From assembly GCA_036376975.1 (NCBI GenBank), contig DASUZH010000389.1:1-28981 (forward strand): a stretch of DNA of 28,981 bases, in the 5' to 3' direction. Below are positions 13,266-19,188 of this stretch, in pieces. This DNA comes from Burkholderiales bacterium (GTDB lineage Bacteria > Pseudomonadota > Gammaproteobacteria > Burkholderiales > SG8-39). The notes under the pieces are model-generated. The model searched no databases. It was not told the DNA's origin and saw only the letters and a list, made by a program, of their open reading frames with translations. Every line of letters begins with the position of its first letter. Within the stretch, counting starts at the first letter, position 1. The position numbers were made by a program, and so were the translations under genes.

Positions 13266-14453
13266 ATGAACCTGGATCCGCTTAGCTCGTTGTTCGCGGC
13301 CGTGATCGTGCTGCTGATGGGCGCGCTGGTCAACCGCCGGGTGGCGCTTCTCGCCAAGTACAACATCCCCGACCCGATCACCGGCGGCCTGCTGTTCGCC
13401 GCCGTCGCCTCCGTCGTGCTGGCCTTCAGCAGCTTCAAGCTCGGCATCGACCAGACCATCAAGCCGACGCTGCTGCTGATGTTCTTCGCCGGCGTCGGCA
13501 TGTGCGCCGACCTGCGCTCGCTCGGCAAGGGCGGCAAGGCGCTGCTGATCTTCCTGGTGGTGCTGTTCCCCTACATCCTGGTGCAGAACGCGGTCGGCGT
13601 CGCGGTCGCCAAGGGGCTCGACCTGCACCCGATCTTCGGCCTGGTGGCCGGCTCGATCACGCTGGTGGGCGGCCACGGCACCGGCGCCGCCTACGCCGAG
13701 CGCTTCGCCGAGGTGAACAACCTGCAATCGGTGATGGACCTGTCGATGACCATGGCGACCATCGGCCTGATCATCGGCGGCATCATCGCCGGCCCGGTGG
13801 CGCAGTACGTGATCTCGCGCCACAAGCTGCGCTCCGCCGTGACCGAGAAGAACAAGGCGGAGTCCGAGGCGGCGGCGCCGATCACCACGGTGGGCGCCAT
13901 CGGCTCGCTGGCGGGCATCTTCGCCGCCGTGATCGTCGGGCGCTGGCTGGCGGCGAAGTTCGCCGGCGCGCCGGTCACGCTGCCGGCCTTCCTGTGGTGC
14001 ATGATGGTCGGCGTCCTGATCCGCAACCTGATCCCGTTCACCAAAGTCAGGACCGACGACCGCGCCTCCGACCTGATCTCCGGCGTCTGCCTGTCGCTGT
14101 TCCTGGTGATGACGATGATGGCCCTCGACCTGGTCGAGGTGGCGCTCGCCGCCGGGCCGCTGCTGCTGATCATCGCGGTGCAGACCGTGGTCATCGCGCT
14201 GTTCGCCATCTACGTCTGCTTCCGCTTCCTCGGCAAGGACTACGAGGCGGCGGTGACCTCGGCGGCGTTCATCGGCTTCAGCATGGGCTCGACCGCCACC
14301 GCGATGGCCAACATGCAGGCGATCACGTCGAAGTACGGGCCGGCGCCGACCAGCTACCTGATCGTGCCGCTGGCCGGCGCGTTCTTCATCGACCTGATGA
14401 ACGCGTTCCTGCTGACGGCGATCCTCGCGTTGCCGTTCATGGGAGGAGGCTAG
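13266..14453 (+). CDS. gltS: Sodium/glutamate symporter (GltS/ESS family)
   Basis: [11 protein letters not shown] before ATG 13266. KYNIPDPITGGL, GGHGTGAA, GSTATAMANM, SKYGPAP, VPLAGAFFIDLMN; many hydrophobic segments. Confidence 0.9.
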   Translation: MNLDPLSSLFAAVIVLLMGALVNRRVALLAKYNIPDPITGGLLFAAVASVVLAFSSFKLGIDQTIKPTLLLMFFAGVGMCADLRSLGKGGKALLIFLVVLFPYILVQNAVGVAVAKGLDLHPIFGLVAGSITLVGGHGTGAAYAERFAEVNNLQSVMDLSMTMATIGLIIGGIIAGPVAQYVISRHKLRSAVTEKNKAESEAAAPITTVGAIGSLAGIFAAVIVGRWLAAKFAGAPVTLPAFLWCMMVGVLIRNLIPFTKVRTDDRASDLISGVCLSLFLVMTMMALDLVEVALAAGPLLLIIAVQTVVIALFAIYVCFRFLGKDYEAAVTSAAFIGFSMGSTATAMANMQAITSKYGPAPTSYLIVPLAGAFFIDLMNAFLLTAILALPFMGGG

Positions 14454-14455
14454 CC

Positions 14456-15925
14456 ATGCGCTGCCTGATCGCGTTGCTGGCGTGCCTTGCCGTCGCCGGC
14501 TGCGGCGGCGGCCCGGACACCGAGGCGCTGAGGAAGGGCGTCGAGGAGCGCATCGCCCAGGCGCTGCCGGGCGATACCGTCACGCTCGCCGGCCTCGAGC
14601 GGCGCGGCTCGCAGTCGGACACCAAGGCGCCCGCGGGCGAGACGCGGCGCATCATCTACTTCGACGCCGACCTCAAGCTGGCGAAGGACTTCGACTTCGG
14701 CTCCTGGGACTCGCCCGGGGTGGCCGGCCTGCTGTCGGCGCTCGGCGCCGGGCCGAAGGGCGTCACCGGCGTCACCACCGGCGGCAACAAGGCGGGGGAC
14801 GTGGTGCGCGCGCACGGCACCGCCCTTTACAAGCGCGAAGGCAGCGGCTGGGTCGCAGTCGCCACCGGCGGCTTCCGGCCTGCTTCCGCACCCGCATACG
14901 CGACCAACTCGCCGCAGGGCGTGGCCGCTTCGCTCGAGTCGATGCGCAAGATCGTCGACTCGGTGATGCGCGACGGCGCCCCGGCGCAGCAGGCGATCAT
15001 CCAGGAGGAGCTGGTCGCGGCCGGCGCGGTGATCCGCGCCCGCCTCGCGCGGACGCAGGAAGGCTACGCCTTCGCCGCCGGTCCGGAGAACGGCCAGTAC
15101 CTGCGCTTCGCCCAGGCGGTTTCCGACACCACCAGGACGCGCACGGTAGCCCTGGTCACGCGCGGCGGCGAGGAGAACATCCGCATGCTGCGCGAGGGCA
15201 AGGTGCCGCTCGCCCTGGCGCAGGCGGACGTCGCGCTGCACGCCTATGAGGGCAGGGGCAACTTCACCGGGGAAGGCCCGTATTCCTCGCTGCGCACGTT
15301 CGGCAGCCTGTACCCCGAGCCGGTGCACGTGCTCGCCCGCGCTGATGCGGGCATCCAGACGGCGTCGGATCTCGCCGGCAAGCGCGTCGCCATCGGCGTC
15401 AAGGGCTCGGCGTCGAGGACCACCGCGCTGCGCGTGCTGCAGGCGCACGGCATCAAGGCCGAGGAGCACCTGATGGTCGAGGTGCCGCTCGGCGAAGCGC
15501 TGGTCGGCCTGCGCCAGAAGAGAGTCGATGCGGTGATCCAGATCATCGGCATGCCGGCGGACAGCGTGCGCGACGCGCTCGACGAGATCCCGCTGCGCCT
15601 GGTGCCGCTCGAGCCCAAGGCGATCGCCGCGCTCGCCGCCGCCAAGGCGGGCTACTTCGCCTTCACCATTCCCGCGGGCGCCTACGCCACGCAGAAGGAG
15701 CCGGTGCGCACCATCGCCACCGCGGCGCTGCTGCTCGGCGGCAGCGGCCTGTCCGAGACCGAGATCGCCGCCATCGTGCGCTTCGTCTACCAGGGCGGCC
15801 GCGATTTCGTCGCGCGCGGCAGCGCGCAGGGCGTGCAGGTCGCGCCGAAGAACGCGCGCCTGGGGCTATCGGTGCCGCTGCACACCGTCGCCGGCAGGAC
15901 GCTCGACGAGCTGGCGAAAAAGTAG
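14456..15925 (+). CDS. TAXI-family solute-binding lipoprotein with an about 185-aa N-terminal extra domain (489 aa)
   Basis: RBS GGAGGAGG. Lipobox LAVAG-C16. TAXI motifs from aa 203: AAGPENGQY, GGEENIRML, ALAQADV, LYPEPVHVLAR, DLAGKRVAIG. The track's 13502 start is a spurious extension. Confidence 0.82.
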   Translation: MRCLIALLACLAVAGCGGGPDTEALRKGVEERIAQALPGDTVTLAGLERRGSQSDTKAPAGETRRIIYFDADLKLAKDFDFGSWDSPGVAGLLSALGAGPKGVTGVTTGGNKAGDVVRAHGTALYKREGSGWVAVATGGFRPASAPAYATNSPQGVAASLESMRKIVDSVMRDGAPAQQAIIQEELVAAGAVIRARLARTQEGYAFAAGPENGQYLRFAQAVSDTTRTRTVALVTRGGEENIRMLREGKVPLALAQADVALHAYEGRGNFTGEGPYSSLRTFGSLYPEPVHVLARADAGIQTASDLAGKRVAIGVKGSASRTTALRVLQAHGIKAEEHLMVEVPLGEALVGLRQKRVDAVIQIIGMPADSVRDALDEIPLRLVPLEPKAIAALAAAKAGYFAFTIPAGAYATQKEPVRTIATAALLLGGSGLSETEIAAIVRFVYQGGRDFVARGSAQGVQVAPKNARLGLSVPLHTVAGRTLDELAKK

Positions 15926-15929
15926 GTCG

Positions 15930-16352
15930 ATGACCGCGGCGCGCGCCCTGCTCGTGGTGCTGATCGCCGCGGGCTGCGCGCAGGCGCCGAGTCGGCCCGC
16001 CGGCGAAGGCCTGGTCGGCCCAGTTTGGCAGCTGGTGCGATTCACGGGCGGCGACGACCGGGTCCTCACGCCGGTGGATCGCAGGAGCTACACCCTGCAG
16101 TTCGGCGCCGACGGCCGCGTCAGCGCGCGCATCGACTGCAACCGCGGCAGCGGCACCTACAAGACCACCGGCACGAGCGGGCTCGAGTTCGGGCAGATGG
16201 CCATCACGCGCGCGATGTGCCCGCCGGGGTCGATGCACGATCACGTCGTCAGGCAGCTGCCCCACATCAAGTCGTTTGTCATCAAGGACGGACGCCTTTA
16301 TCTTTCCCTCATGGCGGATGGCGGGACCTACGAGTTTGAGCCGGCGCGCTAA
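15930..16352 (+). CDS. META (HslJ-like) domain lipoprotein
   Basis: Lipobox IAAG-C. WQLVRF, YTLQF, DCNRGSGTY, ITRAMCP (META Cys pair). Confidence 0.85.
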   Translation: MTAARALLVVLIAAGCAQAPSRPAGEGLVGPVWQLVRFTGGDDRVLTPVDRRSYTLQFGADGRVSARIDCNRGSGTYKTTGTSGLEFGQMAITRAMCPPGSMHDHVVRQLPHIKSFVIKDGRLYLSLMADGGTYEFEPAR

Positions 16353-19188
16353 GGCCGCGATCGTCCTCGCCGTCCTGCTCGTCGCGTACGGGGCGGCCGG
16401 CAGTTACTTCGTGCCGCGCATCGCCCGCACGCAGGCCGAGGCTTTCGTCGCCGAGACCTTGCAGCGCCGGATCAGCATAGGCGAGATCCGCTTCAACCCG
16501 TTCACCCTGGCGATCGAGATCTCCGACCTCAAGCTGACGGAGGCCGACGGCGCGCCGCTGGCGGCGTTCCGCAGCCTGTACGTCAACGCCGAGCTCGCGT
16601 CGCTGTGGCGGCGCGGCGTGGTGCTGAAGGAGGTCGCGCTCGCCGCGCCCGACGTCGAGCTGATCATCGCCCCCGACGGCAGCCTCAACCTGGCGCACCT
16701 CGCGCCGCCTGCGCCGCCGCAACCGGCCGAGAAGAAGGACGACGCGCCGCTGCGCGTGCACATCGGCAGCTTGTCGGTCACCGAGGGGCGCATCGGCTTC
16801 CAGGACCGCTCGCTCGCGCAGCCGTTCAGCGCCGCCTTCACGCCGATCCGCTTCTCGCTCGCCGACTTCCGCACCGACCTCGGCCATCGCACCACCCACA
16901 GCTTCAGCGCCACCAGCCGGATCGGCGCCCGCTTCGACTGGTCGGGCGGATTCACCGTGCGGCCGTTCGGCGCCGGCGGCACCTTCAGCGTCACCGACCT
17001 GCGCCTTGCGGCTCTCAACGAGTACGTTGAGGGAAAGCTGCCGGTCGAGCTCGTTTCGGGCAACGCGCAGCTGCGCGGCGAGTACCGCTTCGACCTGCAG
17101 CCGCTCGCGCTCGAAGTGGCGCTGCCGCTGATCGGCGTGCGCGACCTGGTGCTCGCCGAGCGCGGCGTGTCCGGGGCGCCGCCGATCACCGTGCCGGAGA
17201 TCGACGCCGAGCAACTCAGGTTTTCGCTCACGCAGCGCGACGTCGGGCTGAGGCGGTTGACCCTGCGCGGCGCGCGCGTCGAGGTTGCCCGCGACGCCGA
17301 CGGCAGCCTGAACCTCGCGCGCCTGTTTACACCGACGGCGCAGCAGACGCCGCCGGCGGCTCCCGCCGCACCGGTCGGCGCCCCCGCCGGCGGGGCGGCC
17401 AAGCCCTGGACCGTGCATGTCGACGCGGCAACCCTCGAAGGCGCGACCGTGCTGACAGAGGACCGCACGCTGTCGCCCGCCGCCCGGGTCAGCCATTCAC
17501 CGGTGGACGTCGCCATCAGCGGCTGGAGCACCGCGCCGGGCTCGCGCATGAAGTTCGAGGCGAAGCACGGGATCGAAAAGCACGGACAGCTCACCGCCGC
17601 CGGCGACCTGCGCCTGGAGCCTTTCGACCTCAACGTCGCCGTCGACCTGCAGCGGTTTCCGCTTCCCGTGCTGCAGCCATACCTCTCGCAGGCGACCGCG
17701 CTCACGCTGCGCTCCGGCGACCTGAGCGTGAAGGGCAGCTATGCGCTCGCCGCGCCGCGGCCGGGGGCATCGCTCGCGTCGAAGGCGTCGGGGGAAATGA
17801 GGGTCGACAACCTGCTCGCCACCGACGACGTCGTGAAGGAGGACCTCCTCAAGTGGCGCTCGCTGGTTTTCGGCGGCATCCGGTTCGAGCAGGGCCCGGA
17901 CCGGCTGCGCATCGACCGCATCGTGGCGCAGGAGCCCTACGCGCGGATCGTGATCGCGCAGAACGGCACCACCAACATCGGCCGCGTCCTGGAGCGGCGC
18001 GCCGGCGCCGGCGCGCCGGCGAAAGCGGGGACCGGGAAGCCCGCCGGCGAGCGCATGCCGATCACGATCCGCACGGTGCAGATGGCCGGCGGCTCGGCGC
18101 ACTTCGCCGACTATTCGATCCAGCCCTCGTTCGCCACCGGCATCGTCGACCTGAACGGCCAGGTGAGCGGGCTGTCGTCGGCGCCGCAATCGCGCGCCAA
18201 GGTCGCGCTGAGCGGGAAAGTGGACGAATTCTCCCCGGTAAGCGTGTCGGGCGAAGTCAACCTGCTCTCGACGGCCACCTACTCCGACCTCGCACTGAGC
18301 TTCCGCAACATCGAGCTCACCAGCTTCAACCCGTATTCGGGCAAGTTCGCCGGCTACAACATCGCCAAGGGCAAGCTTTCGACGGAGATGAAGTACCGCG
18401 TCGACAACCGCAAGCTCGACGCCAAGCACCACATCGTGATCGACAACCTCGAGTTCGGCGAGGCGACCGATTCCAAGGACGCGGCGCCGATCCCGATCAA
18501 GTTCGGCGTGGCGCTGCTGAAGGACAAGAACGGCATCATCGACCTCGACCTGCCGATCGGCGGCACGCTCGACGACCCCGAGTTCCGCCTGGCGCCGATC
18601 ATCTGGAAGGCCCTCGTCAACCTGCTGAGCAAGCTGGTCACCGCGCCGTTCAGGGCCCTGGCCGGCGGCAGCGACGACCTCGCGTTCGTCGACTTCGAGC
18701 CGGCTTCGCCCGCGCTGCGCGAGCCCGACCGCGGCAAGCTCGGCACCCTGTCGAAGGCGCTGGTGGAGCGCCCGCAGCTGCGGCTCAACGTGCCGTTCAC
18801 GCTCGCGCCGGCCGCCGACTCCAGCGCAGCCGCCGCGCAGGCGCTCAACGCGCTGGTGCCGCGCGCTCCCGGACCGCTCGACGAGGCCGCCAAGCGCAAG
18901 CGCATCCAGGCGCTGGAGGCGGCCTATCGTGCCCAGCTGAAGGCCGAGCCGAAGATCGTGGAGGAGAACCTGGACGTCCGCATCGAGCGGCTGCAGGCCG
19001 CGCTGCTCGAGCACCTCAAGCCGCCGCCCGCGGCGCTCGAGGAGCTCGCGCGCCAGCGCGCCCAGGCGGTGCGCGCCGCGCTCCTGGCGAACAAGGAACT
19101 GAACCCCGAGAGGGTATTCATGGTGTCGCAGCCGGGCGAGCCCGCGCTGGCGGACGGCCGGGTGCGCATGGAGATGAAGCTCGAGTGA
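16318..19188 (+). CDS. DUF748-repeat (AsmA-like) inner-membrane-anchored protein with OmpA-like C-terminal segment
   Basis: N-terminal TM, GEIRFNPFTL, repeated GSLNLAxL, NPYSGKFAGYNIAKGKL, ALLKDKNGIIDLDLPIGGTLDDPEF, LARQRAQAVRAAL. Start is 16318 (ATG) or 16336 (TTG). Confidence 0.85.
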   Translation: MAGPTSLSRRAKAAIVLAVLLVAYGAAGSYFVPRIARTQAEAFVAETLQRRISIGEIRFNPFTLAIEISDLKLTEADGAPLAAFRSLYVNAELASLWRRGVVLKEVALAAPDVELIIAPDGSLNLAHLAPPAPPQPAEKKDDAPLRVHIGSLSVTEGRIGFQDRSLAQPFSAAFTPIRFSLADFRTDLGHRTTHSFSATSRIGARFDWSGGFTVRPFGAGGTFSVTDLRLAALNEYVEGKLPVELVSGNAQLRGEYRFDLQPLALEVALPLIGVRDLVLAERGVSGAPPITVPEIDAEQLRFSLTQRDVGLRRLTLRGARVEVARDADGSLNLARLFTPTAQQTPPAAPAAPVGAPAGGAAKPWTVHVDAATLEGATVLTEDRTLSPAARVSHSPVDVAISGWSTAPGSRMKFEAKHGIEKHGQLTAAGDLRLEPFDLNVAVDLQRFPLPVLQPYLSQATALTLRSGDLSVKGSYALAAPRPGASLASKASGEMRVDNLLATDDVVKEDLLKWRSLVFGGIRFEQGPDRLRIDRIVAQEPYARIVIAQNGTTNIGRVLERRAGAGAPAKAGTGKPAGERMPITIRTVQMAGGSAHFADYSIQPSFATGIVDLNGQVSGLSSAPQSRAKVALSGKVDEFSPVSVSGEVNLLSTATYSDLALSFRNIELTSFNPYSGKFAGYNIAKGKLSTEMKYRVDNRKLDAKHHIVIDNLEFGEATDSKDAAPIPIKFGVALLKDKNGIIDLDLPIGGTLDDPEFRLAPIIWKALVNLLSKLVTAPFRALAGGSDDLAFVDFEPASPALREPDRGKLGTLSKALVERPQLRLNVPFTLAPAADSSAAAAQALNALVPRAPGPLDEAAKRKRIQALEAAYRAQLKAEPKIVEENLDVRIERLQAALLEHLKPPPAALEELARQRAQAVRAALLANKELNPERVFMVSQPGEPALADGRVRMEMKLE

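Follow-up and report, generated by a model that had tools for sequence, protein, structure and literature searches.

A gltS gene and an adjacent gene for an elongated TAXI lipoprotein in a Burkholderiales genome: a likely TAXI-GltS transporter

The window, by which is meant the whole 28,981-nucleotide stretch of DNA analysed, contains a gltS gene followed directly by the gene of an elongated binding lipoprotein. The features of the pair are:

13266-14453, + strand: gltS, ESS-family Na+/glutamate symporter, 395 aa, matching profiles TIGR00210 and PF03616
14442-14449, + strand: Shine-Dalgarno sequence GGAGGAGG of the binding-protein gene, read directly and formed by Gly codons at the C-terminal end of gltS
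14456-15925, + strand: elongated lipoprotein of the TAXI family, 489 aa, predicted to bind glutamate, a BP0403 homologue by architecture
14456-14503, + strand: lipoprotein signal peptide with lipobox VAGC and Cys16, from the translation
14504-14860, + strand: N-terminal alpha/beta domain, residues ~17-135 (20-135 in the models), predicted GltS docking surface
14921-15076, + strand: helical hairpin, residues ~156-207, two long helices in both models
15050-15910, + strand: TAXI solute-binding domain, residues 199-485, carrying Y215 and Q256 (TIGR02122, PF16868)

In profile searches GltS scored 375.5 bits against TIGR00210 (cut-off 310.75) and matched PF03616 with an E-value of 1e-106. The latter profile found no second match in the same genome, making this the only GltS-family gene detected there. 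The TAG stop codon of gltS (14451-14453) is separated by two nucleotides from the ATG of the lipoprotein gene (14456) and GGAGGAGG lies at 14442-14449, which bears out an earlier note on this DNA that had pointed to a 2-nt gap and a strong Shine-Dalgarno sequence in the tail of gltS. Across related loci the distance from the gltS stop to the next start is mostly between a 4-nt overlap and a 2-nt gap, and a GGAGG-like run falls within the last gltS codons in most of them. With a TAXI gene on the same strand directly 3' of gltS, the junction is of the type described as translationally coupled for BP0402/BP0403 of B. pertussis, the pair from which the "TAXI-GltS" class was defined (Jaques et al., Commun Biol 2025; PMC12344293). 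A scan for promoters and terminators around the pair gave nothing useful: one hit fell inside gltS, and the others, a promoter-like and a terminator-like site, are 3' of the pair at about 16270-16300.

The lipoprotein begins with MRCLIALLACLAVAGC, a lipobox with Cys16; this cysteine is invariant in 43 homologues and kept in 95% of 85 distant ones. Its lipidated position is followed by glycine and not aspartate (CGGGPD), so that retention in the inner membrane is not predicted by the E. coli +2 rule, which is based on E. coli and may not hold in Burkholderiales. TIGR02122 (195 bits, cut-off 84) spans residues 199-485 only, and PF16868 matched with an E-value of 7e-50. About 180 residues thus lie beyond the TAXI domain, following the lipidated cysteine, in good agreement with the extra N-terminal domain of about 185 aa previously noted. 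In the AlphaFold2 model the N-domain has a pLDDT of ~85-90 and the element order helix-strand-strand-helix-strand-strand; the full-length model, with a middling pLDDT of 64, was used for the order of secondary structure only. In BP0403 the helical hairpin is the dimerisation domain, and the substitution L201R turns that protein monomeric (PMC12344293). The likely equivalent of L201 by offset is L197, a residue conserved to 90% or more in the close homologues.

Full-length homologues of the lipoprotein numbered 399 at E <= 0.001. The N-domain and helices were present in 241 cluster representatives, the near-full-length ones being ~440-530 aa long, and a TAXI domain was found in 9/9 of the full-length or TAXI-truncated N-domain hits checked. 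Among the hits checked, then, the N-domain occurred only in the TAXI-lipoprotein architecture. A Foldseek search of the PDB with the model of N-domain plus hairpin returned no match at E <= 0.001, and a wide VIA-align search produced only weak, non-specific rows (Z at most 6.2), those for the N-domain being NTF2-like or VirB8-like (4EC6, 6ZGN) and the remainder helical hairpins. The PilO-like resemblance named in PMC12344293 was not recovered by either program, and is not excluded by this result.

The best solved relatives of the TAXI domain are the glutamate-binding TAXI proteins GluBP of Thermus thermophilus (1US4) and VcGluP of Vibrio cholerae (8S4J), with E-values of 1e-32 to 3e-34. Y215 aligned to the ligand-contacting Tyr of 1US4, and Q256 to the Gln of both 1US4 and 8S4J; the VcGluP counterparts are Y45 and Q93. 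Among the 43 homologues Y215 is invariant and Q256 nearly so, and at 23-52% identity they are kept in 95% and 93%, respectively, of 85 homologues. By offset, the pair maps to Y219 and Q263 of BP0403, which binds L-glutamate with a Kd of 180 nM and loses affinity 167-fold in Y219A and 250-fold in Q263A (PMC12344293). For all the homology of their binding domains and the shared Tyr/Gln pair, VcGluP and GluBP differ from the present protein in being 300-330 aa long and in lacking both N-domain and hairpin. VcGluP, moreover, belongs to a TAXI-TRAP system that includes a membrane protein of the DctQM type; the present lipoprotein has GltS as its neighbour and no linked DctQM gene.

Prediction of a 1:1 complex of GltS and the lipoprotein scored 0.63, the best control giving 0.00. 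That mark was reached by 58/80 solved complexes and by 2/110 mismatched pairs, a rough calibration since own alignments were used. The runs shared at least 61% of their contacts, and partner pLDDT was at least 77. On the lipoprotein the predicted interface comprises residues 48-56, 66-70, 97-102 and 120-122, all in the N-domain, and on GltS residues 119-124 and 138-157. Nearly all confident contacts were with the N-domain, the TAXI domain touching GltS at residue 455 only. The predicted complex supports binding of GltS by the lipoprotein through its N-domain. Interface residues of the N-domain were not significantly more conserved than others of that domain (6/30 versus 12/100; Fisher p = 0.2), and interface conservation was therefore dropped as evidence for docking.

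Stand-alone GltS proteins were represented by E. coli GltS and 18 homologues, the latter being the GltS genes found when 150 further genomes of this phylum were sampled. They resemble the present protein in family, length and GGHGT motif, but share only 32-42% identity with it and lack a TAXI neighbour. Their predicted docking loop has G for D119, G for N152 and no Q154. D119 and N152 were each found in 29/29 TAXI-linked GltS proteins against 2/18 of the stand-alone ones, and Q154 in 28/29 against 0/18. It is possible, if somewhat doubtful, that the N-domain is a dedicated docking adaptor for a loop signature (D119, N152, L153, Q154) restricted to binding-protein-coupled GltS; the differences could also stem from shared ancestry of the linked copies and not from selection for docking. 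A signature of this type is not reported in PMC12344293. If the adaptor idea is true, sequence alone could suffice to tell binding-protein-dependent GltS from stand-alone GltS, and a loop swap could serve to probe how specific the pairing is.

The majority of GltS proteins function unaided by a binding protein, and none of the 18 sampled genes had a TAXI gene within 1.5 kb. The lipoprotein might accordingly be a glutamate sensor or regulator that gates or stabilises GltS, or signals elsewhere, while GltS takes its substrate directly from the periplasm. The near-confinement of the confident 1:1 contacts to the N-domain is in keeping with such a role, but in the published 2:2 model (PMC12344293) the binding domain contacts the second protomer of GltS, which a 1:1 model is unable to show. 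TAXI proteins, furthermore, act in delivery in TRAP systems, the window lacks a signalling partner retained alongside the pair, and the flanks vary from locus to locus. Lachnospiraceae carry single-chain TAXI-GltS fusions (PMC12344293, Fig. 6E), which combine the same two modules and so argue for physical cooperation between them; they differ from the present pair of genes in being one polypeptide with TAXI at the N-terminus, for which neither N-domain nor hairpin is mentioned in PMC12344293. A sensory or regulatory role is, on balance, improbable.

Could the lipoprotein instead serve a DctQM permease encoded at a distance, its adjacency to gltS merely co-regulating two routes of glutamate uptake? 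Orphan TRAP binding proteins are known, and the genome contains three fused DctQM genes. A cognate DctQM elsewhere in the genome had been named beforehand as an observation that would speak against a link with GltS. Each of the three adjoins its own TAXI gene (3/3) and none is unpartnered, in a draft that is 80% complete and consists of 629 contigs, so that a spare DctQM could be missing from it. The window holds no DctM or DctQM gene, as had been stated from the sequence, and its contig gave no match to PF06808 or TIGR02123, the DctM hits all being on other contigs. A TAXI-TRAP system has a fused DctQM encoded with its TAXI gene; the neighbour here is gltS. That pairing persists where the flanks change, and in 3/3 very distant homologues whose N-domain identity is only 24-29%, and both the exclusive association, among the hits checked, of the N-domain with this architecture and the predicted GltS contact, which passes its controls, also tell against service to a distant permease. 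With all three DctQM genes of the draft already partnered and the gltS pairing conserved, we rejected this explanation as very improbable.

The neighbourhood survey proposed in the earlier note found gltS directly upstream of the TAXI lipoprotein gene in 54/55 informative Burkholderiales loci, the sole exception being a copy that is truncated at its 5' end and adjoins a Fic gene. The pair is also kept in 6/6 metagenome contigs, among them three whose flanking genes are unrelated. According to the survey, this module occurs commonly throughout the Burkholderiales and is strictly conserved there. With gltS directly upstream in 54 of 55 loci, the adjacency is far from chance; an accidental juxtaposition of functionally unrelated genes, in favour of which nothing speaks except that GltS usually stands alone, is refuted by this conservation and by the tight spacing, and has virtually no probability left.

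In its organisation the locus closely resembles BP0402/BP0403. BP0403 is likewise a lipoprotein with an alpha/beta N-domain, a helical hairpin and a TAXI domain, encoded by a gene in translational coupling with gltS (PMC12344293). In both cases gltS precedes the gene of an elongated TAXI lipoprotein (489 aa here, 503 aa in BP0403) with the domain order lipobox, N-domain, hairpin, TAXI, the Tyr/Gln pair is present, the operon has no TRAP membrane gene, the genome has GltS as its sole ESS member, and a contact of the N-domain with GltS is predicted. The differences are the spacing, with a gap of 2 nt here and an overlap of 3 bp in B. pertussis, and the host, another Burkholderiales lineage represented by an environmental draft genome of ~70% G+C; the present pair is known from sequence and models. 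The scan of genome contigs for relatives of the lipoprotein gave no Bordetella locus, and BP0403 (UniProt Q7VSK8) was compared by architecture, not by alignment. Loci at 51-57% identity to the lipoprotein belong to what we take to be the same family as Bordetella.

We consider it likely that gltS and the lipoprotein together form a TAXI-GltS transporter of the BP0402/BP0403 class, working as a coupled, glutamate-capturing and N-domain-docked system. The two genes would be translated as a coupled pair, and Cys16 would anchor the lipoprotein in the periplasm. Its C-terminal TAXI domain would capture L-glutamate with high affinity through the Tyr/Gln pair, to judge from the binding reported in PMC12344293, and the N-terminal alpha/beta domain would dock onto the periplasmic loops of GltS. 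The hairpin would probably give a lipoprotein dimer matching the GltS dimer, again by analogy with PMC12344293. GltS would then import glutamate together with Na+, its movement probably being of the elevator type. The cell would likely benefit by scavenging glutamate at levels lower than the Km that GltS has by itself. The suggestion made earlier that the lipoprotein feeds GltS and docks by its extra domain matches the BP0402/BP0403 model, the conserved pairing, the Tyr/Gln residues and the N-domain interface, and stands at the level of prediction; in BP0402/BP0403, too, the coupling of the binding protein to GltS is a proposed model, to be verified (PMC12344293).

The further suggestion that this might be a new kind of transporter found no support, since the system had already appeared as a preprint in November 2024 and as a published paper in August 2025 (PMC12344293). 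The idea of TAXI-GltS delivery is already known, and the locus is a further, ordinary example which adds no new principle. For annotation, the lipoprotein should not be named a TRAP subunit. After TRAP and TTT, TAXI-GltS is only the third known kind of secondary transporter that is associated with a soluble binding protein; every additional example broadens the picture, and the many candidate pairs are available for transport experiments.

The gene pair at 13266–15925 on the + strand, within a G+C-rich window (about 63–76%), comprises the following features:

13266–14453, + strand: gltS, 395 aa, a full-length GltS (TIGR00210, 375.5 bits against a cut-off of 310.75 bits; PF03616, E-value=1e-106)
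13620–13736: the part of gltS specifying GltS residues 119–157
14442–14449, + strand: GGAGGAGG, made by the final Gly codons of gltS
14456–15925, + strand: TAXI lipoprotein gene, 489 aa, with the N-terminus MRCLIALLACLAVAGC, a lipobox with Cys16

The TAG stop codon of gltS occupies 14451–14453 and the lipoprotein gene begins with an ATG at 14456. The TAXI profile is limited to lipoprotein residues 199–485 (TIGR02122, 195 bits; PF16868, E-value=7e-50), and the stretch of approximately 180 residues separating the binding domain from the lipid anchor matched no Pfam or NCBIfam family. All that the earlier note had observed is correct: the 2-nt spacing, the SD in the gltS tail, the extra N-terminal region and a window in which no DctM or DctQM gene is found. 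The remaining genes are housekeeping or unrelated ones (pyrG, kdsA, eno, an AsmA/DUF748 protein, cation transporters and others). At 15930–19188, on the same strand, a small lipoprotein gene 5 nt past the TAXI stop is followed by a 970-aa DUF748/AsmA-like gene; since neither is retained next to the pair in the three metagenome contigs examined, both probably lie outside the transporter.

The pair adds another member to the TAXI-GltS class described in Bordetella pertussis by Jaques et al. (PMC12344293). There, the TAXI lipoprotein BP0403 has no TRAP membrane partner and its gene overlaps the 3' end of gltS (BP0402); the pairing is retained by homologues in other bacteria, and TAXI-GltS fusions occur in a few Lachnospiraceae. 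An AlphaFold 3 model of a 2:2 complex places the N-domain on the GltS transport domain, functional coupling awaiting experimental verification according to the authors (PMC12344293); a literature search revealed no follow-up paper demonstrating transport. The mechanism proposed in the earlier note, a lipoprotein feeding GltS with its extra domain as docking adaptor, is the published model and passed the tests that could be run here, physical contact being assessed by prediction only; the suggestion of a new transporter is not supported. As in B. pertussis, GltS is the product of the sole ESS-family gene found in the genome.

A cognate DctQM elsewhere in the genome would provide the lipoprotein with a conventional partner. 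Three fused DctQM permeases exceed the TIGR02123 cut-off in the draft assembly (3.07 Mb, 629 contigs), each adjoining its own conventional TAXI gene (contigs C476, C621 and C526), and none is without such a partner; because this genome is 80% complete, the result is supportive but not final. A second permease-less TAXI gene, of conventional size, is present on contig C45 (1376–2254, minus strand), with a mandelate racemase/muconate-lactonising-type gene on one side and a metallo-beta-lactamase-fold gene on the other; as the contig is only 3.2 kb long, its partner may lie beyond the contig end.

The neighbourhoods of extended TAXI proteins were surveyed, as the earlier note had proposed. Homologues of the lipoprotein number 399 at E ≤ 0.001, the best 120 being almost all of similar length (480–524 aa). 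On three long metagenome contigs the gltS stop again lies 2 nt upstream of the lipoprotein gene, amid dissimilar flanks: a lactonase and a deaminase in one, nap genes in two, followed in one case by an AI-2E transporter and in the other by unnamed ORFs together with Lnb_N. When species-representative genomes were scanned, 56 loci were located (Cupriavidus, Ralstonia, Caballeronia, Pararobbsia, Roseateles, Ramlibacter, Pusillimonas, Candidimonas, Eoetvoesiella, Orrella and others). One of these begins within the lipoprotein gene, which leaves 55 that are informative; in 54, the gltS gene immediately precedes the lipoprotein gene on the same strand. At related loci the two genes mostly overlap by up to 4 nt or are separated by up to 2 nt, and in most of these loci the gltS tail carries a GGAGG-like run. 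The sole real exception is Variovorax saccharolyticus (L050:4194–6389), where some 35 codons are missing from the start of the elongated TAXI gene, and with them the signal peptide; the gene lies behind a Fic gene split into two ORFs; this copy is probably a remnant from rearrangement.

A profile-free search with the N-domain and helices yielded 241 cluster representatives, the near-full-length ones being ~440–530 aa with the N-domain in N-terminal position. A TAXI domain is present in nine of the ten matches checked, and in three of the most distant homologues (N-domain 24–29% identical) gltS is again directly upstream. The tenth, a 494-aa metagenome protein (P0129), joins the C-terminal part of GltS (P0129 residues 1–85, PF03616) and the lipoprotein N-domain (P0129 residues 180–363) in a single frame. 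This may represent a GltS-then-TAXI fusion, in a module order opposite to that of the Lachnospiraceae fusions (PMC12344293), or a sequencing or gene-calling artefact. At L085:4504–5727, in a long-read metagenome bin, only fragments match (gltS 242–356, lipoprotein 26–156), the pair being either decayed or interrupted by frameshift errors.

The nearest solved relatives of the lipoprotein are the glutamate-binding TAXI proteins 1US4 (E-value=2.7e-34) and VcGluP (8S4J, E-value=1.1e-32). Of the two ligand residues, Y215 aligns with the Tyr in 1US4 and Q256 with the Gln in both chains, a position consistent with VcGluP Q93 after correction for a signal peptide. Across 43 homologues Y215 shows no variation and Q256 almost none; in 85 cluster representatives of only 23–52% identity, Y215 (95%), Q256 (93%) and Cys16 (95%) are kept. 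BP0403, to whose numbering these residues were mapped by offset only and not by alignment, has a Kd of 180 nM for L-glutamate, and binding is weakened 167-fold by Y219A and 250-fold by Q263A; it dimerizes through its helical domain and L201R renders it monomeric (PMC12344293).

The full-length AlphaFold2 model (43-sequence alignment) is middling (pLDDT 64), with a confident N-domain (helix 22–36, strands 42–54 and 64–75, helix 87–96, strands 116–128 and 131–134) followed by two long helices (156–169, 176–207). Folded alone, the first 189 mature residues reached a pLDDT of 78.6 with unchanged element order; fold searches with the N-domain found no convincing solved relative. Complex prediction with GltS (27-row alignment) and mature lipoprotein residues 17–489 (43 rows) scored 0.63 (three runs: 0.63, 0.67, 0.61) against 0.00 in all three controls. 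In the tool's calibration, 58 of 80 solved complexes but only two of 110 mismatched pairs attained this level; these counts are only approximate here because our own alignments were supplied. At least 61% of contacts were common to the runs, with partner pLDDT of at least 77. The confident interface involves lipoprotein residues 17–18, 48–56, 66–70, 97–102, 120–122 and 138–146, almost entirely in the N-domain, and GltS residues 119–124, 138–157, 298 and 393–394. The prediction supports, but does not show, binding of the two proteins, and it agrees with the published AlphaFold 3 model as well as with the docking adaptor idea. Neither a Protein Data Bank sequence search nor PMC12344293, according to which no GltS structure is available, provides a solved GltS-binding-protein complex, so a pass that merely reproduces a known structure is unlikely. 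The lipoprotein interface residues show no significant excess of conservation over the remaining N-domain residues (p = 0.2).

In E. coli, Asp after the lipidated Cys is the classical inner-membrane retention signal (the +2 rule). Here Gly follows the Cys (CGGGPD, 14501–14518); related loci have CS.GPD, CGAGPD or CARGPD, and post-Cys Asp occurs in none of the start peptides displayed for them. Inner-membrane retention would consequently not be predicted by the rule, which may not hold in Burkholderiales. The TAXI-GltS model requires an inner-membrane anchor, as assumed for the lipoprotein in PMC12344293, though the classical signal is absent.

Searched with the gltS model, a sample of 150 additional genomes from the same phylum gave 18 further gltS genes, none with a TAXI gene within 1.5 kb. 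Aligned with 27 close and two distant TAXI-linked copies, these stand-alone GltS differ in the predicted docking loop:

D119: TAXI-linked 29/29; stand-alone 2/18, Gly in 16
N152: TAXI-linked 29/29; stand-alone 2/18, Gly in 13
Q154: TAXI-linked 28/29; stand-alone 0/18

The linked copies have D119, N152, L153 and Q154 in common; these residues belong to the loop that follows the GGHGT motif. As these copies may form a single clade, the difference is a lead rather than proof; it represents a small addition to the published TAXI-GltS system (PMC12344293).
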